NCBI GenBank assembly: GCA_965232515.1
Contig: CBDDPY010000002.1
Span: 1,312,001-1,376,000 of the forward strand
Direction: 5' to 3'
DNA length: 64,000 nt
DNA from: Alphaproteobacteria bacterium
GTDB taxonomy: Bacteria; Pseudomonadota; Alphaproteobacteria; GCA-2731375
The position numbers and the translations under genes are program-made. Shown piece after piece: positions 14,345 to 58,449 of this stretch (position 1 is the stretch's first letter; every line of letters starts with the position of its first letter). The notes beneath the pieces are model-generated. The model saw nothing but the letters and a program-made list of their open reading frames with translations. It did no database searches and was not told the DNA's origin.

Positions 14345-14403
14345 CGCCGGCAGCAAGGCTAAAGTCGTCGCCGGTAGGGGGCCTGTTGGGAGGGAACGCA
14401 TCC

Positions 14404-15036: not shown

Positions 15037-15042
15037 GCGACT

Positions 15043-43833: not shown

Positions 43834-43923
43834 TGGCGGATGGGGTGGGATTCGAACCCACGAGACGCGCTAACGTCTGCCGGTTTTCAAGACCGGTGCC
43901 TTAAACCGCTCGGCCACCCATCC
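43834..43923 (-). tRNA. tRNA-Ser(TGA), 90 nt, encoded CCA
   Basis: GGATGGG...CCGGT-CT-TGA-AA-ACCGG anticodon arm, long variable arm, GGTTCGAATCC T-arm, CCCATCC-G-CCA end. Confidence 0.96.
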
Positions 43924-43925
43924 GC
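43883..43925. repeat. att core, left copy (within the intact tRNA)
   Basis: GTTTTCAAGACCGGTGCCTTAAACCGCTCGGCCACCCATCCGC. Confidence 0.95.
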
Positions 43926-43988
43926 AATAATGATTTCAATCACTTAACAAAATTGTCGGGGCCGCGATACACCGCAAGAGCCCCGACT

Positions 43989-44007
43989 TGCAACCCAATT
44001 GCAACCC
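43989..44007. repeat. Probable integrase arm-type sites (TGCAACCC x2)
   Basis: TGCAACCC at 43989 and 44000; the same tandem pair recurs at 58270 and 58282 near the other att. Confidence 0.7.
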
Positions 44008-44017
44008 GACCGGCCGG

Positions 44018-45169
44018 TCAGCGTTCTACCATTGGTCTCAATATCGCGTCTATCCGGTTGGCCGCTTCTTCCTGCATTCCCGGCAGCACATGCGAATAGG
44101 TGTCGAGCGTGATCGAGACCGACGCATGGCCGGCGCGCTCACTCGCCACCTTCGGGTGCACGCCTTCAAGCAGCAGGTGCGAGATGTGCGTATGCCGGAG
44201 ATCGTGAAACCGGACGGTCGGGACATCGATGCCGGCGATGCGGCGGGCAAACTCGCGGGTGAGGGAGCGCGGCTGGACTGGCGCGCCGTCATAGCGGCAG
44301 ATAACCAACCCCTCGTCGTCGCGCCCCATGCCTTGGGCAAGCCGGAGCTCGGCCTGCTCGCGCCGATGGCGCCGCAGGGCATCGACCGCGACCGCAGGCA
44401 ATGAGATCGTCCGGCGCGAGCGTGCCGTCTTCGGCGGCTGGAACTGCACGCCCTTGGCTGTCTGCTCCAAGGTCTGGGTTACCGAGATGGACGCGCCGTC
44501 GAGATCGACATCGCGCCAGCGCAGACCAAGTATCTCGCCGCGGCGCATACCTGTGGTGACGGCCAGCAGGACCGGCATGTAAAGCTTGGTGCCGCCTATC
44601 GCGTCGAGCAGGACGCCAGTTTCCTTCGGGGTCAGGATCCGCATTTCCTTCCGCACCGGCCGCGGCGGCTCGACATCCTTGGCCGGGTTCCTGGCGATCA
44701 TCTGCCAGCGCACGGCCTGCTTTAGCGCCTGGCTGAGTATGCGGTGGTGGTGCTTCACCGACTGGGCGGAAAGACCTCCCTTGCCATCACGGCGGCCCGA
44801 TTCGAGCGCCTTTGACCATGCGGTGCTGATATGGACCGGCTGCAGCTTGCTGAGAACGTGCGTGCCCAGCGCCGGCACCAGATGATGGTGCACGATGTCG
44901 GCGTAGCGCTCGAACGTCTTCGGTCGAACGCTCGGCTTCACGGTGTCAAGCCACTGCTGCAGGAACTCGGCAACCGTGGTGCGGCTCGGCTCGACATACT
45001 CATTCGCATCCAGCGCGGCCAGCAGGCGGTTGAGTTCCCGCTGAGCATCGCGCTTGCCGCCGCGGACAGTGTGCCATTTGGTGCGGCGCTTCCCGGTCTC
45101 AGGGTCGCGCCCGATATCAATCTTTATCGCCCATGATTCCTTACCGCGCTTGCGGATATGACCTTTCAT
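44018..45169 (-). CDS. int: Tyrosine integrase
   Basis: Arm-binding N-terminus MKGHIRKRG..W; TGMRRGE, KT, FHDLRHT, GH, TYSH catalytic set; adjacent to att. Confidence 0.96.
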   Translation of the reverse strand: MKGHIRKRGKESWAIKIDIGRDPETGKRRTKWHTVRGGKRDAQRELNRLLAALDANEYVEPSRTTVAEFLQQWLDTVKPSVRPKTFERYADIVHHHLVPALGTHVLSKLQPVHISTAWSKALESGRRDGKGGLSAQSVKHHHRILSQALKQAVRWQMIARNPAKDVEPPRPVRKEMRILTPKETGVLLDAIGGTKLYMPVLLAVTTGMRRGEILGLRWRDVDLDGASISVTQTLEQTAKGVQFQPPKTARSRRTISLPAVAVDALRRHRREQAELRLAQGMGRDDEGLVICRYDGAPVQPRSLTREFARRIAGIDVPTVRFHDLRHTHISHLLLEGVHPKVASERAGHASVSITLDTYSHVLPGMQEEAANRIDAILRPMVER

Positions 45170-45717
45170 TTCAGCCTCCCGATCAGATCGCCCAGCCATT
45201 CCCGGATGCTGGGGAACATCTTCAACTGTTTTGAGTATTGAACGCCCTTCTCCGGAAGCGGCGTCTCATAGGTCATTTTCAACTGATCGATGATCCCGAG
45301 AGCGGTGGCCTCCGCCAATTGCTCGGGCTTAGGTGCCCAGCTTAGATGGGCCGGCGCCTTGGTCTTGCCCGCGGGTCGGAAGGCCAGCAACAGCTTTGCA
45401 ATCGCCTGGGCAGTGACCTCGGTGGTGTAAGCGTCGCTCGCCCAGTGCCGCCGCGTGATCATCTCGACCGAGTCAAAGACCTCGTTGAACAGCCGCGCAA
45501 ACGCATAGCGCTCGAGGCTATCGAACCGCTCCCGGATTTGCTTTTCATCGTCGAATGACCCGCGCAGCCGCGCCTCGACCTCCTGGCTAAGTGACATGTT
45601 GCTCGCCGCCCGGGCGTCCTCCAACGCCTGCCGCAAGTCGGCTGTAATGCGCGTGGTGAGCACGGCCCGCTTGTCCTCATAAGGCCCGCTTGGTTTGCGT
45701 CCGATCTTCCTTGGCAT
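45166..45717 (-). CDS. Arc/TraY-like ribbon-helix-helix regulator
   Basis: LTTRITADLRQALEDARAASNMSLSQEVEARL has an RHH pattern; ATGA-coupled to int, divergent from xis. Confidence 0.7.
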   Translation of the reverse strand: MPRKIGRKPSGPYEDKRAVLTTRITADLRQALEDARAASNMSLSQEVEARLRGSFDDEKQIRERFDSLERYAFARLFNEVFDSVEMITRRHWASDAYTTEVTAQAIAKLLLAFRPAGKTKAPAHLSWAPKPEQLAEATALGIIDQLKMTYETPLPEKGVQYSKQLKMFPSIREWLGDLIGRLK

Positions 45718-45898
45718 CGTCTCGTCCTGCTTAATTTGTCTTCACTATTTTTCACTCTGATGCGTTTTGATGTGGTGCGCAAGCACAAAAAGGGCTATAG
45801 CGGCTAGAGGCGAAACAAAACGAGACCGGCCGAGGCCACAGAGGGGGCCGTAGTCCTAGGGCTCGACCAACTGCGAAGCGCAAAGGAAAGGAAACATC

Positions 45899-46093
45899 AT
45901 GCTGGAAAACCCGAAGACCATCAGCGTCCCCGAGGCCGGCTGGCGCTATTTCGGTCTCAGCAAGAATGCGTCCTATGAGGCCGCCAGGCGCGGCGATCTT
46001 CCCGTCATCCGCATCGGTCGCATCCTGCGCGTCCCGGTGGCCGCGATGGACCGAATGCTTGAGCAGGCCGGCCAAAACGAACGCGCTGCCTGA
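45899..46093 (+). CDS. Excisionase-like HTH protein
   Basis: TISVPEA...GLSKN..YEAARRGDLP.IRIGR..RVP; AAGGA RBS. Confidence 0.85.
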   Translation: MLENPKTISVPEAGWRYFGLSKNASYEAARRGDLPVIRIGRILRVPVAAMDRMLEQAGQNERAA

Positions 46094-46133
46094 CGCGACG
46101 AGTAGAAAGAGGACCGAGCGCTAGCCGCGAGCC

Positions 46134-46310
46134 ATGACCGCAAGGCTCACTATCGATGCTGAGCGAGAACGCCGGCTGTGCGACGGCGAAAGATCGCCAG
46201 ACCGCGCAGGCGGTACGACGGACATGGCAGCAGATGCGGCCATGAACACGTTTGAGAGGATCGGCGAGATTGTCGACCGAATCGTAAAGCGGATTTGGAT
46301 CGATGATTGA
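46134..46310 (+). CDS. Small hypothetical protein (58 aa, below the track cutoff)
   Basis: Open frame ending MNTFERIGEIVDRIVKRIWIDD, overlapping the next start; alternative start 46242. Confidence 0.4.
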   Translation: MTARLTIDAERERRLCDGERSPDRAGGTTDMAADAAMNTFERIGEIVDRIVKRIWIDD

Positions 46311-46866
46311 ACTCGACTTCGACCCCCGAGAGACCTTCTACGCCTGCGGGCGCGATGTCCGACAGAGCCACATTGATCGGATCTGCCGGCACGTCACACC
46401 GCGCGCATTGCTCGGCGGCGGCGGCTTCGGTGTTGCCCGCATCCAGTTCGACGGTGACAGGTTCGATTTCGACGCCGCCGGCTTCGAAGCGTTCATTCTG
46501 GCCGCAAGAGAGTCACGGTGGACCGATCAGCTCGGAACCATAACCCCCATTATCGATCTCGTTGCCTGGCTGCCCGACCGCCCGCAGGTGTTCGGCGTGC
46601 TGGAGGGCCGCGCCTGGGCACTCGGGGAGCCGGCTCTATCGCCGAACCGAATGACCGCAGTCCCGGTCGTGCGAACACCGCTCGCCTGGCTGCAGCACGG
46701 CGGCGACGCGCTGCTGATCCTCGATCGCAAGCGGGCTTGGCTAGAACTGATGCACGGGCCGGCCCTGATCGCCGAAGACGTGCAGCATGGCCGAGAGCTG
46801 CGAGAGATCGTCAACCCGCCGAAATGGACGGGCGAAATCATGTTGCGGGAGAGGGCGGCAGCATGA
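46303..46866 (+). CDS. Hypothetical replication-module protein
   Basis: 187 aa with IIDLVAW and RTPLAWL motifs; ATGA-coupled to the helicase. Confidence 0.7.
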   Translation: MIELDFDPRETFYACGRDVRQSHIDRICRHVTPRALLGGGGFGVARIQFDGDRFDFDAAGFEAFILAARESRWTDQLGTITPIIDLVAWLPDRPQVFGVLEGRAWALGEPALSPNRMTAVPVVRTPLAWLQHGGDALLILDRKRAWLELMHGPALIAEDVQHGRELREIVNPPKWTGEIMLRERAAA

Positions 46867-48005
46867 GCGACGACGGGTTGATCCGACTGGAGGACGCCGA
46901 ACACCGCGCCCGCGGCGGCGATCCCACGCCGATCATCGACGAACTCGACCCTGTAAGGCTGCACGGCAAGCCGATCCCGCCGCGCCGCTGGTTGGTGCCC
47001 GGCCTGATCCCGTGGAAATCCGTCACGTTGCTCGGCGGCGATGGTGGGTTGGGAAAGTCGCTGCTAGCAATGCAGCTCCAGGCCGCGGCCGCGATCGGGC
47101 AAGACTGGATCGGGTTCGAAACCCAGCCGGTCAAGTCATACGGCATCTACTGCGAGGACGACGCCGACGAGCTGCACCGCCGGCTTGCCGACATTGCACG
47201 GCATCACGGCGTCGAGCTCGGCGACCTGGCCGACATGCTGATGGCGCCGAGGGTCGGACACAACAGTGTTTTGGCGTCGACCGGCTACGACCGCATCTTC
47301 CGCGAGCTGCCGCTATTCCAGGCTGTCAAAGCGAAGTGCCGCGAGCATGGCGCCCAATTACTCATCATCGACACCGTGGCCGACACGTTCGGCGGAAACG
47401 AGAACTTCCGCGGCGAGGTGCGCACCTTCATCAACCTGCTGCGGCAGATCGCAATCGAGATCGACGGCGCCGTTGTCTTAACCGCACATCCGTCGAAAGA
47501 CGGCCTGTCGACCGGCAGCGGTATTTCGGGGTCGACCGCCTGGAACAACAGCGTTCGGTCTCGCGTCTACCTGACCCGGCCCAACACCGACGACGGCGAG
47601 GAGGACCGATCGGACGAACGGGTGCTGAAGACGATGAAAGCCAATTACGGCGGCCTGCATGACGATATCCGGCTCGTCTGGCGGGATGGCGTTTTCGTCC
47701 GCATCGAGGAGCCGAGCGGCACCATTGGTGCCATCGAGCGACGGTCAGCGGAAGGTGCGTTTCTGGAGGGTCTGGACGCGCTGCAGCGCCAGGGCCGAGC
47801 GGTTAGCGAGTCCCGCAATGCCGGCAACTTCGCGCCGAAGGTAATCGCCGGCATGAAGGTCGGGAAGCGGCACGGCCGGGGCAAGTTGGCCAAGGCCATG
47901 GAGCGGCTTTTCGACGAAGGAAAGATCAAGGTCGAGACGTACGGACGCACCGGCGATCGGCACAAGCGCATCGTCATCGTCGGCGAGGAGGGGCACGAAA
48001 AATGA
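46863..48005 (+). CDS. AAA_25 / RepA-type SF4 helicase
   Basis: RRWLVPGLIP, Walker A GDGGLGKS, Walker B LLIIDT, GGNEN, AHPSK, SGSTAW, KANY; start ATG 46863. Confidence 0.92.
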   Translation: MSDDGLIRLEDAEHRARGGDPTPIIDELDPVRLHGKPIPPRRWLVPGLIPWKSVTLLGGDGGLGKSLLAMQLQAAAAIGQDWIGFETQPVKSYGIYCEDDADELHRRLADIARHHGVELGDLADMLMAPRVGHNSVLASTGYDRIFRELPLFQAVKAKCREHGAQLLIIDTVADTFGGNENFRGEVRTFINLLRQIAIEIDGAVVLTAHPSKDGLSTGSGISGSTAWNNSVRSRVYLTRPNTDDGEEDRSDERVLKTMKANYGGLHDDIRLVWRDGVFVRIEEPSGTIGAIERRSAEGAFLEGLDALQRQGRAVSESRNAGNFAPKVIAGMKVGKRHGRGKLAKAMERLFDEGKIKVETYGRTGDRHKRIVIVGEEGHEK

Positions 48006-48008
48006 GCT

Positions 48009-48196
48009 GCGTCGGTCCCGTTTCGCCACCTCGTAAGTCATTGATTTTATTCGCGTCGGTGTGTGTTCGACGATTTTGCGTAGGTGTCTGAGAAAATGAA
48101 AGAAAATCAATCACTTAACTCTTGCGTCGGTTCTGCGTCGGTGTGTGCCTACCCCCATAGGGGGGTAGGGCAGGGCCCCCGCTCGTCGGGGGAGCC
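48009..48196. other. Putative replication origin: GCGTCGGT iterons, two inverted IHF-consensus sites, GC-rich hairpins
   Basis: GCGTCGGT at 48009, 48053, 48124, 48135 (GCGTAGGT at 48078); TAAGTCATTGATT at 48034 and AATCAATCACTTA at 48105. Confidence 0.65.
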
Positions 48197-48243
48197 CACT
48201 GCCCCAGTTCCGTCACTCCCCTTGGAAACCCGGAGGAACCGAA

Positions 48244-48588
48244 ATGCTTGATGACATCACCTGCGCCGAGTTCGGCCAGCGCGTGGTCGACGAACTCGCG
48301 CGAACCTGCCCGCATCTGCAGCCTTTCCTCGTCGAGACCGCCCGGTTCGGCGCGGTATGCACATTCGCTCGCGAGAAGAAGTTGGGCGGCGACAAGCCGG
48401 CCTGGCAGATCCTCGAGTCGGCGCTTGCTGACATCTTTCACGTGGCGCGCCGGATAGGCACCGGCGGCGATGACATGACCTGGACCGTGGTTTCGGACAA
48501 GGCCGCGCTTCGCGAGGCGCTGACCGCCGTTTTGCAGCCCGAGCCGGCGCCCGAGCCCGAAGAACCGAACATCCTTATGGCCGGTTAG
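48244..48588 (+). CDS. Hypothetical protein
   Basis: GGAGG RBS; first gene of the coupled late-like operon. Confidence 0.65.
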   Translation: MLDDITCAEFGQRVVDELARTCPHLQPFLVETARFGAVCTFAREKKLGGDKPAWQILESALADIFHVARRIGTGGDDMTWTVVSDKAALREALTAVLQPEPAPEPEEPNILMAG

Positions 48589-48631
48589 GACGGCGAAACC
48601 GGCGTCTGTCTGCACAGTGGAGACCGCGCAA

Positions 48632-48868
48632 GTGAGCGAAAAGACAAAGGAAACCGGGAAACGCCCCCCTCGTGTCGGCCGTCTTGACACCGTTGGCGGC
48701 GTCGTCGCGGAGCTGGGCAAGATCTATCGAGCGGCCCGCCGCGGCGATATCGACACCCAGGATGTGACCCGGCTCGCCTATGTGCTGTCGCAAATCCGCG
48801 CGGCCATCGAAAGCAGCGAAATCGAGCGCCGGCTTGACGAGCTTGAACGCAAGGCAGGAACGCTATGA
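48632..48868 (+). CDS. Small helical protein, possible small-terminase/packaging-type factor
   Basis: G.I....A..L pattern and terminal EIERRLDELE coiled coil; function inferred only. Confidence 0.55.
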   Translation: MSEKTKETGKRPPRVGRLDTVGGVVAELGKIYRAARRGDIDTQDVTRLAYVLSQIRAAIESSEIERRLDELERKAGTL

Positions 48869-49179
48869 GCAAGCGCCTCCGCGCCCGGTTGGAACGCCTC
48901 GAAACCGCGAAGGCAGATGCCGAGGCGTTCTGCAACACCATCGTCGTTCTGCCCGGAGAGACGCACGACCAGGCGCTCGGTCGCCTCGGCTTCGAGCCTG
49001 GCCCAGTCGACATGACCATGTTCGTGCAGCGGTTCGCCGAAGACGCGCAGCCAGAACCGGTAAAGCGGACACCGCTCGTCGGCAGACCAGCCGGGCCGCT
49101 CCGGGTTGTTATGGCCGACGACTGGAGCCGGGAAGACTGGGACCTGACGGAATACGCCGACTGCGAGGGGCGGTCATGA
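48865..49179 (+). CDS. Hypothetical protein (RLERLE...PGET)
   Basis: ATGA overlaps on both sides. Confidence 0.7.
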   Translation: MSKRLRARLERLETAKADAEAFCNTIVVLPGETHDQALGRLGFEPGPVDMTMFVQRFAEDAQPEPVKRTPLVGRPAGPLRVVMADDWSREDWDLTEYADCEGRS

Positions 49180-49364
49180 GGCGGAGCATCACACATCGCC
49201 TCGACCGCGTGGCCCGCCGCGTCGACCCGTCGCCGGGGATTGTATTTGTCATTATCAAGCCCGGAGAGACGCGGGAATCCGTCATGGCCGAAAGGGGCCT
49301 GACCGGGCGCAAGTTCCGAGCCCTCTACATCATCGACCTGACGAAAGGGGAACACGATGAATGA
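49176..49364 (+). CDS. Small hypothetical protein, apparent paralogue of the preceding gene
   Basis: MRRSITHRLDRV...IIKPGET; ATGA-coupled. Confidence 0.6.
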   Translation: MRRSITHRLDRVARRVDPSPGIVFVIIKPGETRESVMAERGLTGRKFRALYIIDLTKGEHDE

Positions 49365-50013
49365 ACCTGTAAACGAGGCCGAACCGTCGGCAGCCGAGAA
49401 GGTGGCCGCGACGCTCGCCGGCCTCGAAACGCAACTCGCCGACGCGACGGCCGAGCGTTCCGAGCTGATCGACCGACAGGGCCGATTGGCGATGCGCATG
49501 CACAGCGGCGACAGCGCAGCCGGCGAAGCCTATCGCGGCGTGGTGGGCGAGCGGCGCCGGCTTGATGAGACGGTCGAAAGCCTGACGCTCGCTGTGCAGG
49601 CGGCCCGCGCCGAGCATGAGCAGGCTGTCAGCGACGATATGGCGGCCGCCGAGGCAAACCGGGCCGAGCGTATCGACGCCCTACTCGACCTGCGCAATGC
49701 GGCGCTTGCCGACGCCGAGCGAGCCTTGCGCGAGGCGCTCGACCGGCTGGACCGAGCCGGCGAGCTGGCGGCCGAGATCGTCGAGGTTCGCGGCGCTGTC
49801 AAGAACCTGCCCCGTTTCAGCAACACGCTGCACCCCGAAAACACACGCGACCGGCTGTCGTGTTCGGCCAACGCGTTCGGGCTCGGGCGGTGGCTCAATC
49901 TCGATCAGGAGCGGATGCCGTTCATCAGGGACGACACGCCATCGTCGCTGGTCGACGTCGAGGCACCCGTACAGGACCGATATCGACTGACCGAGAAGGA
50001 GCACGCGGCATGA
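49357..50013 (+). CDS. Coiled-coil protein
   Basis: Ala/Glu/Arg-rich heptads over about 150 aa; AAGGGG RBS. Confidence 0.75.
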   Translation: MNEPVNEAEPSAAEKVAATLAGLETQLADATAERSELIDRQGRLAMRMHSGDSAAGEAYRGVVGERRRLDETVESLTLAVQAARAEHEQAVSDDMAAAEANRAERIDALLDLRNAALADAERALREALDRLDRAGELAAEIVEVRGAVKNLPRFSNTLHPENTRDRLSCSANAFGLGRWLNLDQERMPFIRDDTPSSLVDVEAPVQDRYRLTEKEHAA

Positions 50014-50363
50014 ACGCGCAAGAGGCACAACGGAAGATCCGCGCCATCCTGGCCGACAAGGATCACGCCTATCACGATTCTCGTAGTCCACAGCATCAAG
50101 ACGCTGTGGACGTGATGCAGGGGCTTTACGAGATCGTCTATCCGGTCAGCGAGCCCGAGCCCGGCGGGCAGCGGTTCGCCGAGCTGGCGCAATCCCAGAT
50201 CCGGAAGAAGGAAAGCGATCCCGACTTCATGGCGGCGTACCGCGAACCCGGCCACGCCGATCACGCGCAGGCGGTCGAGACCATGAACCGGCTTTACCGC
50301 GAGGCGCACCCGGAGCCCTCGATCGAGGAAGGGTTCGCAGACGCAGGAGGGCCCGAGCAATGA
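50010..50363 (+). CDS. Protein with two tandem copies of a podovirus scaffold C-terminal-like motif
   Basis: Internal repeat AQ..IR....D...AY......H..AV..M..LY....P; AAGGAG RBS and ATGA overlap at 50010. Confidence 0.7.
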   Translation: MNAQEAQRKIRAILADKDHAYHDSRSPQHQDAVDVMQGLYEIVYPVSEPEPGGQRFAELAQSQIRKKESDPDFMAAYREPGHADHAQAVETMNRLYREAHPEPSIEEGFADAGGPEQ

Positions 50364-50803
50364 CCATGAGCGGCGTTGCAACCGGCGGCCTGGGCAGCAT
50401 CGGAGACCAGCAGCACAAGCCCGATGACTTCCAGGCACTCTTGGAGACGTACGGCACCGCCTCGGCGGCCGGCGACTACAAGCACTTCAGCGAAGCGGTT
50501 GGGGACAGGCTGGTTGAAGCCGGCGTGCTGGACGAAAATAGCCCTTGGCTGACGACGTTCGTCTTGCAGGCGCAGGCGGCGGCAAAGCTCCGGGAAGTCG
50601 TCGACGGACGCGGCGAAGTGGTGCGGGATTTCGGCGGGCTCGCCATGTTCCTAAGTGATCGCGCGATGATCGGTGGCGACGAAGGGCGTCGGCTACTGCT
50701 CGAGTACGCAGACTTCCGCCAGGCGTTCGCAAAGGCATGCCGGGACGAGCTGGAAGCCCGAAGCGGACAACCAGGCTACGAAGCACCGGACGACGCCGCA
50801 TGA
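50360..50803 (+). CDS. Hypothetical protein
   Basis: ATGA-coupled on both sides; AGGAGG RBS. Confidence 0.7.
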   Translation: MTMSGVATGGLGSIGDQQHKPDDFQALLETYGTASAAGDYKHFSEAVGDRLVEAGVLDENSPWLTTFVLQAQAAAKLREVVDGRGEVVRDFGGLAMFLSDRAMIGGDEGRRLLLEYADFRQAFAKACRDELEARSGQPGYEAPDDAA

Positions 50804-51312
50804 CCACTGCGCCCGCTACAGTCGATTATCGCGCGCGCTCGCGGCGGCCCGTCATCCGGGAAGCGACGGCCGCCGACGTGCCCGAGCTGGTGCGCCTGGG
50901 CGCCGAGATGCACGCGGAGTCGCCGGCCTATTCCTGGCTGCCGTTCGACGACGTGCTGGCGCTCGCGAACGGGCATCGCTGGGTGATGAGCGACGAACAC
51001 TTGGTGCTGACGGCCGACGATGACGGCGACCTGTTCGGCGTGCTGGTCGGGCACCTCGGACGGTTCTTCTTCTCGCGCCGGCTGATCGCCTCCGACATCG
51101 TGCTCTATGTCCGCGCCGAACGCCGCGGCGGCCTGGCGGCGAGCCGGATGGTCAAGCGCTTCCGGGACTGGGCGACAGAGCGCGGCGCCGCCGAGATGTG
51201 TATCGGGGTAAGCGCCGGCATCGATAGCGAGCGTATCGGCCGCTGGCTGGAAGCGATGGGAATGGACATCGGCGCGGTCACGTACAAGAGGCGGCTCGAT
51301 GTCACTCCATGA
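50800..51312 (+). CDS. Phage-type GNAT acetyltransferase
   Basis: IREATAADVP, LYVRAERRGG..A..M, start ATG 50800. Confidence 0.82.
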   Translation: MTTAPATVDYRARSRRPVIREATAADVPELVRLGAEMHAESPAYSWLPFDDVLALANGHRWVMSDEHLVLTADDDGDLFGVLVGHLGRFFFSRRLIASDIVLYVRAERRGGLAASRMVKRFRDWATERGAAEMCIGVSAGIDSERIGRWLEAMGMDIGAVTYKRRLDVTP

Positions 51313-52018
51313 ACTCGGACCACCGTTCGGCGATGATGGCGCGTGCGATCGGGATTGCGGTGGCGCGGTCCATGCCCGGCCGCAGTCGGTCGTCGTAGAG
51401 CGTGGCGAGGAGCAGCCTGTCAGCCGGGGTGAGCTCGAAAACCGTATCGGCTTCGCAGATGACGGACGGACGGTAGTGGCAGGCGTCGGCCGGCAGGCCC
51501 ATCGCCTGATAGATCTCCTCAAGGATGCAGTCGCGCTGGTCTCGTTCCGAGATGTCGGCGCCGATCAGCACAAGCGCGCCGATCACCTCGCCGTTGCCGC
51601 GTTGCGTGGCGATGTGCACCAGGCAAAGCGATGCGTTGATTTCATCGCCGGCACTTACCCATGTTGGCTGCACCTGACGAAATTGCCGGCGCGGCATAAC
51701 GGCGATTTGGAAATTGACCTGATCGTCGCGGACGGCGCTCCGGTTCCAGCCGAGACCGGTTGCTACGGCGATGTCATCCATGCTGGCTTTGAGGAAGGCG
51801 TCATGCAGGGCAAGGCTCGTTCGAGCGGCCTCACTGTCGACCCATCCAACGACTGGTTCGTTGGGCCAGCGCCGCATGGTGTCTTGGCCAACGCCGAAAT
51901 CATTACCGAAAGCGGCCACTTCGAATTGCCGGGCCACGTTCTCGGGTGTCGGCGTAATCGGCTCCGGGCCAGTCGACACGCAACCGGCGAGCAAGAGAGC
52001 GGCGAGCAGCACACGCAT
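51302..52018 (-). CDS. DUF2927-like lipoprotein
   Basis: Lipobox LLAGC; CILEEIYQAMGLPAD..S; D..LL..LYD.RLRPGM. Confidence 0.75.
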   Translation of the reverse strand: MRVLLAALLLAGCVSTGPEPITPTPENVARQFEVAAFGNDFGVGQDTMRRWPNEPVVGWVDSEAARTSLALHDAFLKASMDDIAVATGLGWNRSAVRDDQVNFQIAVMPRRQFRQVQPTWVSAGDEINASLCLVHIATQRGNGEVIGALVLIGADISERDQRDCILEEIYQAMGLPADACHYRPSVICEADTVFELTPADRLLLATLYDDRLRPGMDRATAIPIARAIIAERWSEFME

Positions 52019-52056
52019 GCCGCAACCATATAGGCGCGAACAAAGGAGACGCAATC

Positions 52057-52890
52057 ATGTGTGGTACAGGCGGTGAAGGCGACAACGGCGGCGATGCCGA
52101 AGTTGACATTGAAGCGCAGGCATTCGGCGTTGGCCCGGTCGGGCAGACGGGGCCGGCACCGGGACCAGGGAATGAGCCGGGCGGGCCGTCGGACAATCCG
52201 GGTCCGGGTCAGTTTGGCGGCATCGGCGCGCCGGGCACGTCCGGGAATTTCGGCGGTGTCGGCGGTCCTGCCGATCTTGAAGCCGATCAAGCCGGGCGGA
52301 ACCCTGGCGCGCTGTCGCCGGGTAAGGGACCAGGGCCGAGCAGCAACACAGTGGGCAAGGTCATCAAAAATGTCTTGCCGTTCGGTGTGCCGCCGGCCGC
52401 TCTCGATCCGTTGGCCGAGAAGGGCGGCCGCGCAATAACAGGCCTTATCGAGGGCATAACCGGAGCGAAGGGCCAAGCCCCCGGCCAAGGCCCCAGCACA
52501 GGCAGCGAAGGCGGTCCCGCGAGCGATTTCGGCGAGAGCGGTAACTTCGGCGGTGTTGGCTTTGGTGGCGGAAACACTGGCGGCGACGGTGCGGTTGATA
52601 ATGGCGCTTCCCGACCGCTGGCAACGTCCGTGCAGACAGCCGAGCGTCAAATCGCGAACCAGCTCGGGCGGCCGGCGCCGCCGGCACGCGCCCCTGCGCT
52701 TGACCTGCCGAGCTCGAACATTGACGAGATCCGTGCCGAGCTGGAAGCAGAGAAAGACGCCCGCCGACGCCGGCGGCGCGCGACACGCGATTCAACGATC
52801 GTGACCGGTCCGCTCGGCGTGCCTGGGCAACCGGAGCTGCTGTTCACTCGCGCGATCCCCGGCGCGTCGCGTCGCCTTTTGGGGCAGTGA
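52057..52890 (+). CDS. Gly/Pro-rich protein with MC start and podovirus virion-protein-like C-terminus
   Basis: AAGGAG RBS; ends RRRRRATRDSTIVTGPLGV...RRLLGQ. Confidence 0.7.
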   Translation: MCGTGGEGDNGGDAEVDIEAQAFGVGPVGQTGPAPGPGNEPGGPSDNPGPGQFGGIGAPGTSGNFGGVGGPADLEADQAGRNPGALSPGKGPGPSSNTVGKVIKNVLPFGVPPAALDPLAEKGGRAITGLIEGITGAKGQAPGQGPSTGSEGGPASDFGESGNFGGVGFGGGNTGGDGAVDNGASRPLATSVQTAERQIANQLGRPAPPARAPALDLPSSNIDEIRAELEAEKDARRRRRRATRDSTIVTGPLGVPGQPELLFTRAIPGASRRLLGQ

Positions 52891-52892
52891 CG

Positions 52893-53198
52893 ATGGCCGA
52901 CGACGACAAGGTGGTCGAACTCAGCGACTCGCGCGGCGATCAGATCCAGGCCGATCAGCAATTCCTGCTCGACGAGCTACGCAAGTCTGCAGCAGCGGCG
53001 GCGGACATCCCCGATCTGGCCGGCTTCGCCCTGATCGCCTGGGACGGCGAGGCGAAGCCCTACACGCTGGTGAACCTCGGCGCGACCGTTAATCCGACCG
53101 TGCCGCGGCAGCTAATCCCGGCCTATGTGCAGATCGTCATGCAGCAGTGGCACGCGCTGTGCTGCGAGCAGGAGCGGTTAGATGGCAGTGAACTGTAA
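52893..53198 (+). CDS. Hypothetical protein
   Basis: Immediately follows the previous stop; LAGFALIAWD motif; alternative GTG start 52887. Confidence 0.65.
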   Translation: MADDDKVVELSDSRGDQIQADQQFLLDELRKSAAAAADIPDLAGFALIAWDGEAKPYTLVNLGATVNPTVPRQLIPAYVQIVMQQWHALCCEQERLDGSEL

Positions 53199-53247
53199 TT
53201 GACGCCGCTACAAACTTCCTAGTCGGTCATCGACGTCCAGTTGAGCT

Positions 53248-53592
53248 TCATTCAATACGCCAAGAATGGTCTGGATCAGGCACAAAAGTCACTCCAGATC
53301 CACTACCAACTCCGATTCCCCCCGTTTCATCCGGAATCAAGGATCCCTCATGTTTGGAATAACGGATCATCACCAGCCAACCGTTTGGCACTGAAACCCT
53401 CCAAAGCTCGTAGCACGTCGGTTGAGGTCGAATCTCGCTACCACAATCTCTCTCAATAACCTCCCATAATAGGCGGTACTGACCTGCAGACTGACCTGCA
53501 GCCGGCGCAGATATCAGCAGCAAACTCGCTGAGATAGCTGCGATGGCAATGGGAATCCCTAAAACTAGCGAGGCACGCATCGGATTGCTCAC
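53248..53592 (-). CDS. Small secreted hypothetical protein (lower-GC cargo)
   Basis: Signal peptide; R..VPNGWLV and FVPDP.H.W motifs; GTGA-coupled to the upstream Cys-rich gene. Confidence 0.65.
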   Translation of the reverse strand: MSNPMRASLVLGIPIAIAAISASLLLISAPAAGQSAGQYRLLWEVIERDCGSEIRPQPTCYELWRVSVPNGWLVMIRYSKHEGSLIPDETGGIGVGSGSGVTFVPDPDHSWRIE

Positions 53593-53909
53593 TCACATCC
53601 GTCAAAGGGATCGCAAAAACAGCCGATCGGGCAATCCCCAGAGTGCTGACAGTACTGACCAACGCAACTCGTTGCCACAAGCTCATCAAATGACCGCAGC
53701 TCGTCCGGGCACCACGTAGCACGAATACAATTTGCCGAGCGCGCATGGGCCTCAGCAAACGAAAGTCCCTGTACATGGATTTTCTTTCGTGCGAGCGGTC
53801 CAGATTCTGGGTCTGCCACAAGGTATATCCCCGTGCCACTCATCTCGTTTTTGTTCTGGTTCGGCTGAACATACTTTGCAACTTCAGGATGAAGTTCGAA
53901 GGTCGGCAT
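53589..53909 (-). CDS. Small protein with a six-Cys C-terminal peptide
   Basis: GGGAGG RBS, ATG 53909; ends CVGQYCQHSGDCPIGCFCDPFDGCE. Confidence 0.65.
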   Translation of the reverse strand: MPTFELHPEVAKYVQPNQNKNEMSGTGIYLVADPESGPLARKKIHVQGLSFAEAHARSANCIRATWCPDELRSFDELVATSCVGQYCQHSGDCPIGCFCDPFDGCE

Positions 53910-54336
53910 AGCTACCTCCCGGCCAAATTGTCGAACACCATTTGATACTAGCAACCTTAGATTTTATAACAAACACCTGTAGCTATGAAACGGCAATTTG
54001 CCGGTAGACAGGTTTCCCCAATGCGCGAGCCTGCATCGGCGTCACCATGAACCCGTCGTGCTAGAGCACCTAATTTCGACCTACGTAAGGGACGTCATGC
54101 AGACATGGCACGGGCCGGCGTGCGGCCAGGAGCGGCTCGACGCCGGCAAGTCAGGGGGGAGAGAAGTAGCCCAGGCAGTCCCTTGCCGCTGTGGCGCGAA
54201 ACCTCGGCCAGAGAGGGGTGCTCTGTGGGGCATCCTTGGGCATGGAGAAAGAAAACAGGGAGGGCACCCACCTTGTTTTCGAAACTGCCGTCGATAATGA
54301 ACAGTGACGACCACAGAGCTTGCCAAGTGGGCGATG

Positions 54337-54546
54337 TTAGAGGCGCATGAACTGAACGAACGCCTGAATGGCGAACCCCGATACTACCAGCAGGAATCCA
54401 TAGAATTGGCGGTCGAACCGCTGTCCGCCACCGCTCCAGAACGGCCGGCGGTCCGGCGCCCTCAGTAGATGGTAGCCGAGAACTGCAAAGCCCACGCCGT
54501 CGCAGAGCAGCCCGACGAGATTGATGAACCCCAAACTCACAATCAT
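54337..54546 (-). CDS. Small two-TM membrane protein
   Basis: Two hydrophobic segments; AAGGGG RBS. Confidence 0.55.
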   Translation of the reverse strand: MIVSLGFINLVGLLCDGVGFAVLGYHLLRAPDRRPFWSGGGQRFDRQFYGFLLVVSGFAIQAFVQFMRL

Positions 54547-54577
54547 TGTCGCCCCCTTCTGACGTTGGCGGAGATTG

Positions 54578-55105
54578 TTATGTCGATGGACTGTCTTCAG
54601 ATGTCACGCCTTCCACATCTGACATTTCGATCGGCGGTATTCGCAGGTACAGCGGCCGCCCAAACGTGTGGTAGATCACGCCATAGACACGCTCGGTATG
54701 GGACCATTCAATCAAGTCTTGTGTCTGCTGGCACTGCGACATGAATTTCTCGCCAACCTTAAGAACGTAAGGGAGTGGATAGACGTCGCCTGGATGCATC
54801 ACGACGGCTGCCTTAGTCGATTTGTTGAGAAGCCAACTCCACCAACCGTCATAACCGAGCAGACCGATGGTGGTTATGGTCGTTGGGGTGGAGCCCGTGT
54901 TGGCAACGTCAAAGATCACGTATTTAGTGTCTCTTTCGAAGCCTCGGCCCCCGGCGAAAATCATGTTCGGCCGTGCCCATCCCTGTAACCGCGGTCCCCT
55001 CGACCACCATTTGATGGCATCCCAAACCAACACGAACGTCGCAACAATCGCCGCATAGATCGCGACAGGGTCGATTTCGTCGGCCAGATCAAACGTAAGC
55101 TCCAT
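54578..55105 (-). CDS. Membrane-anchored hypothetical protein
   Basis: N-terminal TM (VAIYAAIVAT..LVW), then beta-rich domain with V.N.G..PTTI. Confidence 0.7.
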   Translation of the reverse strand: MELTFDLADEIDPVAIYAAIVATFVLVWDAIKWWSRGPRLQGWARPNMIFAGGRGFERDTKYVIFDVANTGSTPTTITTIGLLGYDGWWSWLLNKSTKAAVVMHPGDVYPLPYVLKVGEKFMSQCQQTQDLIEWSHTERVYGVIYHTFGRPLYLRIPPIEMSDVEGVTSEDSPST

Positions 55106-55174
55106 GCTGGCACCCGCCTTTTCGATTTACGTTCGGCGCAATCTACAACCGATAATACAACCTAGCGGGCATAG

Positions 55175-55198
55175 AAAAGGCCCCGCCGAAGCGGGGCC
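55175..55198 (-). terminator. Rho-independent terminator after the recombinase
   Basis: Minus strand GGCCCCGC-TTCG-GCGGGGCC-TTTT. Confidence 0.85.
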
Positions 55199-55240
55199 AG
55201 TAGAGTCTTGGTGCGGCGAGGAAAGCGCCGCGGGGCCAGC

Positions 55241-56203
55241 TTACACGCGGTTCTGCGCTGTCGCCAGCTTGGCCGCCGCACCGCGGCGAACCATCAGGTT
55301 CTCGGTGTAGCGCGACACCATCAGCGCCGTTTTCCAGCCGCCGGCCTGCATGATGCCCGGCAGCTCGATGCCAGCCGCGACCATGTCCTGAGCGCAGCCG
55401 ACGCGCGTTGAATGCCCGGAGATGTCCGAGACCAGCGAATCGGCAACGCCGGCAGTGGCGGCCATGCGCTTGTAGATCCGGGCCACGTCGCCGCCCCGGA
55501 GACGGCTGCAGACGGCGCCGCCGAGCCGGACGGACCGGAACAACGCGCCATGCGCGATGTCGGCCGCCCGCAGCCACGCCGAGAGGTGCGCCACAGTGTC
55601 AGCCGCCAGGTACCGCATGGAGCCTTCGCCGCTCTGGTCGGTTTTGCTGCGCCGAATGAGCGCCGTTCCGTCGCCGGCCTCGGTCACATCGATGTCGGCC
55701 ACGTCCAGCGCCACGAGCTCGCTGCGCCGCGCCAGCGTGTCATAGGCGACGGACAGCAGCGCACGGTTGCGAAGGCCGATCGGCGTGTCGGGACAGGCCG
55801 CGAGCATGCGGTCGACCAGCGGGCGTGTCAGCCCGGCCGCCTGCCGCTGCCGCCGGCCTTTCTCGCGGTGCATGCGCTTCATGGCGAGCTTGACGGACAG
55901 GTCATCGGTTGGCGTCGGCACGCCTGCCGCACGGTGGAACATGGCGATGCTCGACACGTACCGCTGCACCGTCGCCGGCGCCCGGGCCTCGGACATCGCG
56001 TCGATGAACGCCACCACGGCCGCAGGGGTCGCGGGGAGGGGCGTGAACCCCTCCCGTACGCACCAGGCCGTCCAGATGGCCGTATCGCTCTTGAGCGCCC
56101 GCTCCGTCGCTTCGGCATAGGCGCCGCGGGCCTGCTCGGCGTGCCGCTCGAGATTGGCCAGCACATCGGCCGGCAGCGGCGTGACGGTGGTGAGCGCGTT
56201 CAT
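55241..56203 (-). CDS. Cre-like tyrosine recombinase (resolvase type)
   Basis: SAM-like N-domain; RNRALL..YDTLARRSEL, RRSKTDQ.G.G, SGHSTRVG.AQD, GGWK, RY; no arm-binding domain; GGAGG RBS before 56203. Confidence 0.92.
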   Translation of the reverse strand: MNALTTVTPLPADVLANLERHAEQARGAYAEATERALKSDTAIWTAWCVREGFTPLPATPAAVVAFIDAMSEARAPATVQRYVSSIAMFHRAAGVPTPTDDLSVKLAMKRMHREKGRRQRQAAGLTRPLVDRMLAACPDTPIGLRNRALLSVAYDTLARRSELVALDVADIDVTEAGDGTALIRRSKTDQSGEGSMRYLAADTVAHLSAWLRAADIAHGALFRSVRLGGAVCSRLRGGDVARIYKRMAATAGVADSLVSDISGHSTRVGCAQDMVAAGIELPGIMQAGGWKTALMVSRYTENLMVRRGAAAKLATAQNRV

Positions 56204-56517
56204 GACGAGCCTCCAACACTCAGGCCGACACTCCACAAAAGGGGCAACGCCCTTGTCTCGGGTCCAGGCTGCCGGCCCTCGTCAACAGCGATGCGCCAGT
56301 ACCGCGCGTCGAAGTCGAACGGCGGCCGCAGCGGATCGGCGTTGAGCCGCCACGCCAACAATGACGCCTCCTCCTCAAGCCAAGCCCAGTATTTGCGCAA
56401 GGCCTCCTCGGACGGGCGTTCGATGGCGGCGACGATTTGCGGCTTGATGATGGCCGCCGTCGATGCGATGGCGCCCATACCTTTGACGACAGTGCGACGG
56501 GAAACGTTCGTTTTCAT
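56200..56517 (-). CDS. Small phage-type protein with twin-arginine-like N-terminus
   Basis: MKTNVSRRTVVKG; GGAGG RBS; ATGA-coupled to the recombinase. Confidence 0.65.
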   Translation of the reverse strand: MKTNVSRRTVVKGMGAIASTAAIIKPQIVAAIERPSEEALRKYWAWLEEEASLLAWRLNADPLRPPFDFDARYWRIAVDEGRQPGPETRALPLLWSVGLSVGGSS

Positions 56518-56528
56518 GGCCGCCTCCC

Positions 56529-57167
56529 TCACACCCAAGCCTTGCCGCAGGCCAGATACTCGACCGTCTGATTGCTGGCGATTTGCGCCCGGCACCCTTC
56601 CGCCGACTGTTGGGTAAACTCGTTGTCGGCAAGATCGTTTTCCCGGTCGTGGTTGTCTTCGGCCGGGTCGTCGTCTTCCAGCGGGTCGTCATCCTCGTTG
56701 TCGTGGTCAGGCTCCATGTCGGCGGCTTCGCTGCCGAACTCGGCCAGCCAGGCCAGCAACGGCGGCGTGACGGGAACGAGCAGGTAATCCAGATCGCCGT
56801 CGACGGGGATAAGGTCAGCGTCGGCGACCAGCGCGGCAACGACCAGCGTCGCCTTGTGCGCCATCTGCCGCCGCAAGATCGCCGCTTCACCGGTCATAGC
56901 GATGGCGATGTTGGTGGCGGCTGTCCGCCGGCCAGTCGGGGCGCACCGGTGGTACTTCAGCAGTCGCGCCAGCTTCAGCAGCACATGCCGTGTGAAGTCG
57001 AGCCCGATGTCGTCGTGCACGTCGAGCAGATCGGCCGGCACGTCCGGCAGAAGGTGCGGCAGGTGTTCTGCCCGGTCATAGGACCTGGCCGATTCGCGGA
57101 CGAAGTGCTTGCGCGACGCAATGCCGATCGCGCGGGCTTGCGCGGCAGCCATTTCGATGGGTGTCAT
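56529..57167 (-). CDS. Hypothetical protein with acidic repeat tail; first gene after the C4 leader
   Basis: Tail EPDHDNEDDDPLEDDDPAEDNHDRENDLAD; RBS overlaps a C4 target box. Confidence 0.65.
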   Translation of the reverse strand: MTPIEMAAAQARAIGIASRKHFVRESARSYDRAEHLPHLLPDVPADLLDVHDDIGLDFTRHVLLKLARLLKYHRCAPTGRRTAATNIAIAMTGEAAILRRQMAHKATLVVAALVADADLIPVDGDLDYLLVPVTPPLLAWLAEFGSEAADMEPDHDNEDDDPLEDDDPAEDNHDRENDLADNEFTQQSAEGCRAQIASNQTVEYLACGKAWV

Positions 57168-57219
57168 GATGATTTCCTACGTTTGGCTTTCTAGGCCATG
57201 CCAGCGGTCAGCGCTGGCG

Positions 57220-57293
57220 CCGGGAGCTAGAAACCGGACGTAGGACCGGCGGGCTTATTCCCCCGAAGGGTCTTGTATTCACCGCACTCCCGA
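57220..57293 (-). ncRNA. C4-like antisense RNA (P1 C4 / P4 CI type)
   Basis: Closing stem CGGGAG/CTCCCG, internal GAATACAAGACCC-TTCG-GGGGAATAAG, antisense boxes CCTACGT and GTTTCTAG complementary to flanking targets. Confidence 0.8.
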
Positions 57294-57370
57294 CAGAAGC
57301 CGGGCATAAATATACCGCCAAGACCGGTGGCGGGAACCGCCTACGTTAGGTGTTTCTAGCACCGTCGATA

Positions 57371-57399
57371 ATGATAGATATGGGGCACCTAGTTTGCAA
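57371..57399 (-). promoter_or_regulatory. Sigma70-type promoter of the C4 operon
   Basis: Minus strand TTGCAA-17 bp-TATCAT just upstream of the first target boxes. Confidence 0.7.
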
Positions 57400-57473
57400 C
57401 CCTCGGCTAGTACGCAATTGATCGGAAGATTGGATCGCGGCGAGACGCAACGCTCAAACCTCAGCAATCGGCC

Positions 57474-58226
57474 ATGATGACAGTCAACAACTTCTCAGAA
57501 CTGATCGACGGAATTTCGACGATCATCGATGCGCGGCCAAGTGAGACGTGGTGGTGGCGGGGTCACGCCAGGAAGGACTGGAGCTTGCGCCCGAGCGTTC
57601 ATCGAGGCGACCTCGGGCATCGGTATGAGCAGAACTCGTTGGCGACCTTTGTTCGGTACAGCTCTGCACGGCATGCGAACTGCCCTGCGCGCAATGACCT
57701 GCCATCGTGGGCATTCCTGATGCAGCACTACGGGGTGCCCACGCGCCTGTTGGACTGGTCGGAGTCCCCACTCATTGCCGTTTATTTTGCTGTCGCCAAC
57801 CAGGCACACGAAGCTGAGGCAGGGGTGTTGTCTGGGCTACTTCCCGGCCCCATGAACCATCATGAAGCCGGCCTAGCCGGAGTGATTGGCATTAACGGGG
57901 AACCAGCTCGTTCATTGTTCTTGGCCATGAGCGATGAACGAATTCATGAAAAGCACCAAGAAATCATCGCGATACAAGCAAACCAAATGGACCCGCGGAT
58001 GCTGGCGCAGCTTTCGCACTTCACGATCCATGGCCGCGCCACACCTATTGAGCAGATCGATGTCGCGGGTCAGGTCCTCTTCCAAATAGAGATAGCGCCG
58101 CAAGCCAAGGCCGGCATTCGTGAGAGGCTGAGGCAGTTCGGAGTGAGGGAAATGAATCTATTTCCGGATCTCGAACACCTCGCTAACGAGATTCGTGAAT
58201 TGCGGTGGAAAGCGCCCGAAAGCTGA
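57474..58226 (+). CDS. FRG-domain protein
   Basis: WWRGH....W.L.PS..R, MQHYGVPTRLLDWSESPLIA.YFA, RM.AQ...FT, LFPDL. Confidence 0.92.
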   Translation: MMTVNNFSELIDGISTIIDARPSETWWWRGHARKDWSLRPSVHRGDLGHRYEQNSLATFVRYSSARHANCPARNDLPSWAFLMQHYGVPTRLLDWSESPLIAVYFAVANQAHEAEAGVLSGLLPGPMNHHEAGLAGVIGINGEPARSLFLAMSDERIHEKHQEIIAIQANQMDPRMLAQLSHFTIHGRATPIEQIDVAGQVLFQIEIAPQAKAGIRERLRQFGVREMNLFPDLEHLANEIRELRWKAPES

Positions 58227-58406
58227 ACGTCCAACTCGGCGCGAACCGTTGCCAAAGAACAGCGCCATCTGCAACCCACATTGCAACCCAACTGCGAAGG
58301 AATTGCCGGGATGACCGGGGACGAAGCGAAACACCGGACGCCACGAAAGGCCCGGATTTCCTAACTCTCAGGGAAGTGAAGGGACAGCGCGGTACGGTTG
58401 TAATCA

Positions 58407-58449
58407 GTTTTCAAGACCGGTGCCTTAAACCGCTCGGCCACCCATCCGC
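58407..58449. repeat. att core, right copy (displaced 5' half of tRNA-Ser)
   Basis: Identical to 43883-43925; covers tRNA position 1 through the anticodon loop. Confidence 0.95.

Follow-up and report, generated by a model that had tools for sequence, protein, structure and literature searches.

Within a 64,000-nt window of an alphaproteobacterial genome (Alphaproteobacteria bacterium, GTDB lineage Pseudomonadota, Alphaproteobacteria, GCA-2731375; assembly GCA_965232515.1, contig CBDDPY010000002.1, positions 1,312,001 to 1,376,000 of the forward strand; coordinates below are those of the window unless a locus is named), the gene at 50010..50363 encodes a 117-residue protein, here called P0001, that is made of two copies of a module matching the C-terminus of phage proteins encoded at the position of the capsid scaffold. 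The gene lies in an integrated element at a tRNA-Ser gene, an element in which no capsid gene was seen. By analogy with CpmB, a protein of the satellite SaPI1, we propose that P0001 may be a bivalent competitor for the scaffold docking site of an incoming HTVC010P-like phage, acting by size redirection or by interference with assembly; we put the chance that this reading is correct at a little short of even.

The open reading frame (ORF) is a real and intact gene. It opens with an ATG at 50010 and closes with a TGA at 50361-50363, and 4-nt overlaps flank it on both sides, joining its start to the stop of the ORF at 49357-50013 and its stop to the start of the ORF at 50360-50803; it appears to be translationally coupled to these neighbours. 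We considered whether P0001 might nevertheless be a chance ORF or a decaying gene with no function. A search for homologues of similar length returned P0001 alone, and no curated family covers the protein: Pfam (at E ≤ 0.1) gave nothing except a chance-level match to DUF4142, and NCBIfam gave nothing. Against this stands an exhaustive HMMER search of 1.84 billion representatives, which returned 33 relatives at E ≤ 1e-3, two of them at E ≤ 1e-10. The closest (P0002) is a protein of 114 aa that is 49% identical to P0001 across its whole length (E 2.3e-24). Both units of P0001 retain the positions that are conserved in the family, the fold is predicted with confidence, and there is the apparent coupling to both neighbours. 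We regard absence of function as very improbable.

The two-part architecture had been described in a first-pass annotation of the stretch, which saw the 117-aa product as a pair of similar units, and the units are present exactly as quoted there. The best local alignment of the N-terminal part with the C-terminal part (residues 2-52 against 58-110, BLOSUM62) scored 62, a value reached by none of 300 shuffled versions of the protein (mean 24.7, standard deviation 4.5, maximum 47). A 42-position hidden Markov model (HMM) of the unit, built from 34 proteins and run over every ORF of the loci that we fetched, places the two copies in P0001 at residues 5-45 and 60-101. The AlphaFold2 model, calculated from a 34-row alignment, reached a mean predicted local distance difference test (pLDDT) value of 88.4 and a predicted template modelling score of 0.48. 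It has helices at residues 3-15 and 29-43 in unit 1 and at 53-69, 71-78 and 85-99 in unit 2, with the linker and the C-terminal tail at pLDDT ~65-75, and it is consistent with a pair of helix-loop-helix units that are independent of each other and connected by a flexible tether. In the ESM Atlas, P0001 was placed with nameless clusters (0.89) and with a T7-capsid-assembly cluster (0.82), which we took as leads and did not use as evidence.

To identify the unit we relied on profile comparisons. Against PHROGs, residues 1-43 of P0001 aligned to positions 244-285 of the 287 in phrog_3742 (E 2.6e-4), a family that PHROGs labels "unknown function", and 24 of the 33 relatives matched the same family, nearly always through the last ~40 positions of its profile. 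An hhalign comparison of the P0001/P0002 profile with one of 20 full-length relatives gave a probability of 98.4% (E 4.7e-15), with residues 1-48 lying on columns 234-283 of 290. On these alignments the assignment holds: the unit of P0001 corresponds to the extreme C-terminal module of the phrog_3742 "capsid assembly/putative protease" proteins. Because the C-terminal profile positions alone match, we consider P0001 to be a tail-module-only derivative and not a full member of phrog_3742.

The full-length relatives place the module in a phage context. Two of them (P0024 and P0033) match phrog_3742 from end to end and additionally match phrog_458 ("protease"). A TBLASTN query of P0024 against 50,697 phage records matched 35, including 22 Pelagibacter phages of the HTVC010P kind, 3 Ralstonia phages and 3 Sodalis phages; the matched genes are annotated as "putative capsid assembly protein" or "putative protease", and the phage genomes that carry them measure 34-43 kb. 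In HTVC028P the gene order is large terminase, head-tail connector, small ORF, "capsid assembly protein", small ORF and major capsid, and Ralstonia phage RpY1 has the same layout around its scaffold-position gene. The first-pass annotation had likened the repeat to the scaffold C-termini of both HTVC010P-like phages and BPP-1; the former likeness is borne out by the profile matches, while BPP-1 is absent from the 35 matched records. It had also held that the idea would fall if the repeat matched no scaffold C-termini or hit an unrelated DNA-binding family; scaffold C-termini were matched, and no DNA-binding family was hit.

The comparison can be summarized as follows. The phrog_3742 / phrog_458 proteins of HTVC010P-like pelagiphages, RpY1 and prophages have in common with P0001 a C-terminal helix-loop-helix module of ~42 residues. 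They differ from it in length (259-321 aa), in possessing a conserved body (profile positions ~15-240) and a single terminal module, and in being encoded between portal and capsid genes; P0001, at 117 aa, has no body and two modules, and is encoded in an island without portal or capsid genes. PF05396 (T7 capsid assembly, gp9) matched below threshold in the middle of 2 of 12 full-length relatives (E 2.2e-5, which is 25.4 bits against a cut-off of 27.1, and E 0.05); P0001 itself did not match PF05396. A match of one viral scaffold to PF16722 (E 0.04) was taken as noise, and P0001 is not a member of that CpmB / SAPIS-gp6 family, with no match to it in Pfam at E ≤ 0.1.

We then took a census of the unit. 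Outside the window 32 ORFs bear it, and in 30 of these it is present as a single copy at the extreme C-terminus; these 30 are 259-321 aa long (159 aa in locus L043) or are fragments at contig ends. In 19 of the 32 loci the unit-bearing ORF is closely followed by a capsid gene that is homologous to the one from the window's genus (31-57% identity); several of the viral loci are near-duplicates, so that the 32 are not independent cases. The C-terminal placement was seen in 11 of 11 loci from our first viral and metagenome scans; the metagenome scan contributed a single match, to an ordinary full-length scaffold. We also sampled 400 further genomes of the class: matches at E ≤ 1e-5 were obtained in 13, mostly through open frames of 270-340 aa, and only the window's gene spans the whole two-unit profile. 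A genome-contig scan with P0001 and P0002 gave no match, viral scans with the short two-unit proteins P0011, P0018 and P0031 did not find true relatives, and the unit HMM found nothing in loci L059-L065.

Copy number and position of the unit vary across the library. The 34 proteins carry one to five copies: five have the unit at both ends (P0008, P0009, P0017, P0023 and P0028), a family of ~300-aa proteins has three to five copies, and a handful of ~115-130-aa proteins that resemble P0001 have two. The multi-unit proteins, such as P0005, are like P0001 in consisting of the same module repeated with little else; they differ in carrying three to five units, among which a third variant of the loop occurs, and a conserved N-terminal segment, against the two units of P0001. 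We note as well the viral contig of locus L021 (7867-14237), where the phrog_3742 gene has a primase-like gene (plus strand) as its neighbour, with ~2.5 kb and a change of strand separating it from the portal gene; not every phrog_3742 gene is therefore found at the scaffold position.

Prophages with a scaffold of the matching type are present in genomes related to that of the window. A profile of the short two-unit proteins, run over 33 genomes of the family, matched 4 of the 32 other genomes. In one of them (G008) the prophage order is small terminase, large terminase, tail-like protein, DUF2927 (minus strand), GNAT, Gly-rich protein, portal (phrog_332), phrog_3742 and major head (phrog_3437, E 1.3e-91). 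In a genome of the same genus (G024), a short contig carries the C-terminal part of a scaffold followed by a complete 289-aa capsid gene. Unit 1 of P0001 is 42% identical over 45 aa to this same-genus scaffold tail (E 1.6e-7), and 53% identical over 30 aa to the scaffold tail of a prophage from the same family (G019). The G019 prophage also has a 448-aa Gly-rich gene adjoining its scaffold gene and an 86-aa single-unit gene just upstream of its capsid gene. Its two loci (L015, 1076-3472 on contig C12; L017, 5470-9394 on contig C18) may be one prophage split over two contigs, and a 717-aa protein with an HExxH-type motif adjoins the 86-aa unit protein.

The genome to which the window belongs (96% complete, in 4 contigs) contains no second copy of the unit and no full-length phrog_3742 that our searches could find. 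A 12-row capsid profile matched nothing in it, and the same profile found the gene in 3 of 3 control genomes (E 1e-137 to 6e-153); a resident capsid partner of the matching type is absent from this genome. A homologue of the island's replication protein is present in 0 of the 4 genomes that carry the matching prophage type, and the island is therefore no simple deletion derivative of it.

Binding of P0001 to a capsid protein was addressed by complex prediction with the capsid protein from the same genus (12 alignment rows) and P0001 (34 rows), which gave a score of 0.48 against 0.25 for the best control. The individual runs scored 0.09, 0.53 and 0.48, with at least 59% of contacts in agreement and a partner pLDDT of at least 72. 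The mark that we used is passed by 116 of 157 solved complexes and by 2 of 215 mismatched pairs, counts that hold roughly here since the alignments were built by ourselves; scores of 0.60 or less that pass the mark come from only 18 of the 157 solved complexes and from both of the passing mismatches. The modelled complex thus lends weak support to binding. In phage P22 the C-terminal hook of the scaffold touches both coat and portal, as described in PMC12005531, and by analogy with P22 and 80alpha the module would be the coat-binding part of the scaffold. A closer precedent is CpmB of SaPI1, for which PMC5644958 describes a C-terminal motif in common with the scaffold of phage 80alpha, near-identical binding to the capsid protein, and dimers that straddle capsomers to give small capsids.

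If P0001 is a CpmB-like competitor, its action would be triggered by infection with, or induction of, an HTVC010P-like phage. It would dock on the inner face of the capsid protein, where the C-terminus of the scaffold normally sits, and its two heads, joined by a short flexible linker, would tie together adjacent capsid subunits or capsomers while competing with the true scaffold. The outcome might be small capsids that fit the island, comparable to those that CpmB dimers of SaPI1 bring about with 80alpha, or poisoned assembly. The helical-hairpin protein encoded directly upstream (49357-50013) would probably work together with P0001.

Encoded by a mobile element, CpmB (gp6 of SaPI1, acting on 80alpha) is small and entirely helical; its capsid-contacting end is homologous to the C-terminus of the helper's scaffold, and the protein is bivalent (PMC5644958). 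P0001 is like it in its scaffold-tail homology, its two heads and its location on an element without a capsid gene, although there is no sequence relationship between the two. Whereas CpmB is bivalent by means of an N-terminal dimerisation domain, with one helix-and-hook tail per chain, P0001 has two complete helix-loop-helix tails of different subtypes fused in one chain and no other domain. The setting also differs, being an alphaproteobacterial, high-GC, Gram-negative host and an HTVC010P-like phage type, and for P0001 both binding and size redirection are predictions. Two other satellite proteins that invite comparison, Sid of P4 and TcaP of PLE, act from outside the shell, and we know of no homology between either of them and the internal scaffold tail of its helper. 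Few satellite routes of capsid remodelling are known to us (Sid, CpmA/B, Ccm and TcaP), and these come from a small number of intensively studied hosts. PMC7552001 and PMC10945586 present Sid and TcaP as satellite scaffolds that remodel the coat proteins of their helpers, and VEIMEs, the marine and alphaproteobacterial satellites so far described, are reported in PMC9618062 as apparently not remodelling capsids. Our searches of the open-access literature yielded no account of the module, and none of a mimic of the scaffold tail in hosts of this kind.

The two units of P0001 are of different subtypes. When the units are aligned to the HMM, three forms are distinguished by loop length: a long form, one that is 2 residues shorter and one that is 4 residues shorter. 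In both P0001 and P0002, unit 1 is of the 2-shorter form and unit 2 is of the long form, and the other short two-unit proteins are homotypic. Both the long and the 2-shorter forms occur among the single scaffold tails of different phages. Unit 1 of P0001 is identical at 20 of 40 positions to the tails of viral contigs L023/L024 and at 27 of 40 to unit 1 of P0002; unit 2 is identical at 21 of 41 positions to the tails of P0033 and viral contigs L019-L022 and at 20 of 41 to unit 2 of P0002; and the two units of P0001 are identical to each other at 14 of 39. Each unit is thus nearer to phage tails than to its sister unit, and the tandem is therefore either old or a fusion of two tail lineages. 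We claim no donor lineage, the units being short and the differences in identity modest. Since P0002, at 49% identity, has the two types in the same order, the arrangement predates the divergence of P0001 and P0002. An extension of the competitor model, which we consider unlikely, is that P0001 is a hetero-bivalent mimic of the scaffold whose heads, descended from the short-loop and long-loop subtypes of phage scaffold tail, could grip a pair of docking sites that are not equivalent or bind capsid proteins from two lineages of helper.

A role as decoy or size redirector presupposes that the surrounding island is a satellite or a defence element (annotated in Table 1). The island extends from 43.9 to 58.4 kb, ~14.5 kb in all, between perfect 43-bp repeats, and an assembly contig of 14,547 bp from one public DNA run covers exactly 43896-58442, confirming its boundaries. 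In the features by which satellites are recognized, the island has an integrase with att sites, a replication module of its own, a length of 14.5 kb against 34-43 kb for the phages, and no recognized structural or lysis genes. Among its 24 ORFs, PHROGs identified no head, packaging, connector, tail or lysis family, many of the ORFs having no match of any kind, and no portal, capsid or terminase gene or fragment was seen. It is plausible that the island is a phage satellite or a defence element.

Table 1. Features annotated in and around the tRNA-Ser island (window coordinates)
Feature	Position	Strand	Details
tRNA-Ser (anticodon tga)	43834..43923	-	integration target
attL	43883..43925		43-bp perfect direct repeat; covers 5' 41 nt of the tRNA
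Tyrosine integrase	44018..45199	-	PF00589 E 1.6e-19; phrog_1 E 9.9e-82
Candidate regulator, 183 aa	45166..45717	-	weak Arc-like N-terminus; phrog_228 E 0.0035; divergent from the plus-strand genes
HTH_17 / excisionase-like small DNA-binding protein	45899..46093	+	PF12728 E 6.3e-6, slightly below gathering score; TIGR01764 E 0.0016
187-aa ORF	46303..46866	+	upstream of replication gene; no family in Pfam, PHROGs or NCBIfam
AAA_25 (RepA/primase-helicase-like) replication protein	46863..48005	+	PF13481 E 3.2e-32; phrog_906 E 1.3e-33
Four small ORFs	48244-48588, 48617-48868, 48865-49179, 49176-49364	+	no Pfam, PHROGs or NCBIfam family; last three overlap by 4 nt
Helical-hairpin (coiled-coil) protein, 218 aa	49357..50013	+	stop overlaps start of P0001 gene; no Pfam, PHROGs or NCBIfam family
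P0001, 117 aa	50010..50363	+	two helix-loop-helix scaffold-tail units; flexible ~14-residue linker
147-aa ORF	50360..50803	+	no Pfam, PHROGs or NCBIfam family
GNAT acetyltransferase	50737..51312	+	phrog_1249 E 3.4e-27; 29% to GNAT of G008 prophage head module
DUF2927 protein	51302..52054	-	PF11150 E 3.9e-31; 43% to gene beside GNAT in G008 prophage
Gly-rich protein, 277 aa	52057..52890	+	C-terminus phrog_831 E 5.2e-6
103-aa ORF	52887..53198	+	last of plus-strand run; C-terminal 33 aa recurs near 54050-54150
Right arm	53200..58400		GC 0.54-0.59; three unassigned ORFs (-)
Second tyrosine recombinase	55241-56236	-	right arm
FRG-domain protein	57474-58226	+	right arm
attR	58407..58449		second copy of the 43-bp repeat

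Several features of the island deserve comment. The island duplicates the 5' part of the tRNA-Ser gene (nt 1-41, through the anticodon loop) and not the usual 3' part, and the intact tRNA gene now lies directly downstream of the integrase on the same strand, severed from its original upstream region. The pairing of an integrase with an Arc-like gene is also found in locus L058. From 45.9 to 53.2 kb the ORFs are intact and tightly packed, most neighbours overlapping by 4 nt. A promoter and terminator scan returned 0 promoter-like sites, and terminator-like sites at chance level; one terminator-like hairpin at 48054-48072, close behind the replication gene, may mark the border between an early unit and the run at 48.2-53.2 kb, which includes the P0001 gene. 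For the replication protein, 2,327 homologues were found at E ≤ 1e-40. The elements that carry related replication genes include a true prophage (G330, with HNH, large terminase and major head genes) and an integrase-plus-replication element (G160), which have nothing else in common with the island. The Gly-rich protein resembles the one that precedes the portal in the G008 prophage by position and composition, and TBLASTN at 1e-3 showed no link between them. In that prophage the GNAT, DUF2927 and Gly-rich genes lie together just before the portal (locus L014, G008:C149, 13079-14939), and in the window (50737-52890) the three are in another order. The last 33 aa of the 103-aa ORF recur in a 99-aa frame ~1 kb downstream (BLASTP 52%, E 4e-9), which looks like the scar of a rearrangement, and the right arm is probably cargo or a nested insertion.

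The gene immediately upstream of that for P0001 had been labelled as a coiled coil, in keeping with which AlphaFold2 gives a long helical hairpin (helices 12-49 and 53-149 at pLDDT >90, the C-terminal third being of low confidence). In the ESM Atlas it was placed with nameless, mostly viral clusters (0.95) and with Psu (0.89), again leads that we did not use as evidence. Six homologues were found, at 58-62% identity and all ~220 aa long. The longest contigs recorded for two of them (P0044 and P0036) are of 11,600 and 29,847 bp, identical to those recorded for the P0001 homologues P0002 and P0042; the pair therefore probably travels together, and homologues of the two genes very probably occur side by side or near each other on at least two other contigs. 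None of the top 120 homologues of the replication protein has a longest contig of either length. The hairpin family was found neither in viral contigs nor in the 400 sampled genomes of the class. Two possible relationships between the neighbours found no support. In the first, a split scaffold, the hairpin protein would be the body and P0001 the tails, and a profile comparison of the hairpin family with scaffold bodies gave a probability of 0.07%. In the second, a -1 frameshift would fuse 49357-50013 to the P0001 gene; the frame is open from 49860, but no slippery heptamer was seen on reading.

A number of observations weigh against the competitor reading. The sequence of P0001 found no match in the PDB, and Foldseek comparisons of the P0001 and hairpin models with the PDB and BFVD returned none at E ≤ 0.001, as is to be expected of helical hairpins. 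One of the three complex runs scored only 0.09, and the capsid protein was a stand-in from another strain. In the public DNA run the read depth of the island is 67.2, equal to that of its flanks (63, 64.6 and 60.5), and there is therefore no sign of excision or replication in that run. No terminase family was identified among the island proteins in Pfam, PHROGs or NCBIfam, TBLASTN with the small terminase from the G008 prophage found no counterpart among them, and no pac/cos site was identified. The viral-contig scans gave no relative of P0001 or of the hairpin protein, and the 29,847- and 11,600-bp contigs with the homologous pair may themselves be whole phages. Rearrangement has left its marks in the right arm, which contains an insert of low GC content, a second recombinase and a piece of a gene present in duplicate. 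The GNAT, DUF2927 and Gly-rich genes are common to the island and the head module of the complete G008 prophage, and a remnant therefore fits as well as a satellite. Lastly, the unit is not confined to scaffold C-termini, since it is N-terminal in the 448-aa Gly-rich and 86-aa proteins of the G019 prophage, and the gene for the multi-unit P0005 opens a series of internal-virion-protein genes in a phage that integrates. With the unit on N-termini and in multi-copy phage proteins, a small protein made only of such modules could be an ordinary phage part.

We wish to highlight the case of P0005, a 298-aa protein with at least three units at E ≤ 1e-3, encoded on a contig of an alphaproteobacterial metagenome-assembled genome (locus L058). 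At 9001-15101 of this locus, its gene directly precedes three internal-virion-protein genes (phrog_308/4177, phrog_418 and phrog_6651), and upstream of it are an integrase (minus strand), an Arc-like gene (minus strand), a primase and a primase/helicase, a layout that resembles that of the island. This arrangement suggests that the unit also serves in the loading of an internal core.

Such genes speak for a more conventional origin, in which the island would be what remains of an integrating podophage, as a prophage that has decayed or become a mosaic, and P0001 and the hairpin protein would be normal assembly or internal proteins, stranded after loss of the portal-to-tail region and without any present role against phages. 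Real phages do encode proteins that are mostly units, as in L058 and in the 86-aa single-unit protein beside the capsid gene of the G019 prophage. Genes for GNAT, DUF2927 and a Gly-rich protein, all carried by the island, stand ahead of the portal gene in the G008 prophage, the relatives of the replication protein include one in the true prophage G330, and the plus-strand run of the island ends at 53.2 kb, the very point at which the low-GC DNA, the duplicated fragment and the second recombinase begin. Against this origin, all of the ORFs from 45.9 to 53.2 kb are intact and packed with 4-nt overlaps, the 43-bp repeats are perfect and the integrase is intact, we saw no remnants of portal, capsid or terminase genes, and the island's replication protein is missing from all 4 genomes that carry the matching prophage type. 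In addition, the pair of hairpin and target genes persists at 50-60% identity on two or more further contigs with the two-type order of the units conserved, which argues for selection on the pair, although not necessarily in this island. This origin is the main rival to the competitor reading; we find it rather unlikely, but it has to be taken seriously.

A different role for the module would follow if it were a tag for entry into the procapsid, addressed to the capsid interior, the portal or the core. P0001 would then be an adaptor or a passenger, taken up into the capsids of a helper or serving to load proteins of the island into them, and neither an inhibitor nor a determinant of size. That the G019 prophage has the unit on several proteins (C-terminally on its scaffold, N-terminally on its 448-aa Gly-rich protein, and on its 86-aa protein) is in keeping with such a tag, as are the unit proteins encoded beside internal-virion-protein genes, the five proteins with a unit at both ends, and the contact of the P22 hook with portal as well as coat. 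In the window's genome, though, there is a single unit-bearing gene, the island's own Gly-rich protein is without the unit, and a protein made of two tags only has no evident cargo. We consider a docking adaptor decidedly unlikely.

Apart from the role of P0001 itself, the 42-residue module emerges as a mobile unit, present in one to five copies on several virion-associated proteins, and its recognition helps to annotate phrog_3742. P0001 would offer a handle on what the conserved C-terminal module of the scaffold-position proteins binds. If the competitor reading is true, P0001 would be a minimal and easily testable competitor of capsid assembly for the abundant HTVC010P-like podophages, and if its two heads do act as a hetero-bivalent mimic, it would be the first such case in an HTVC010P-like phage system.

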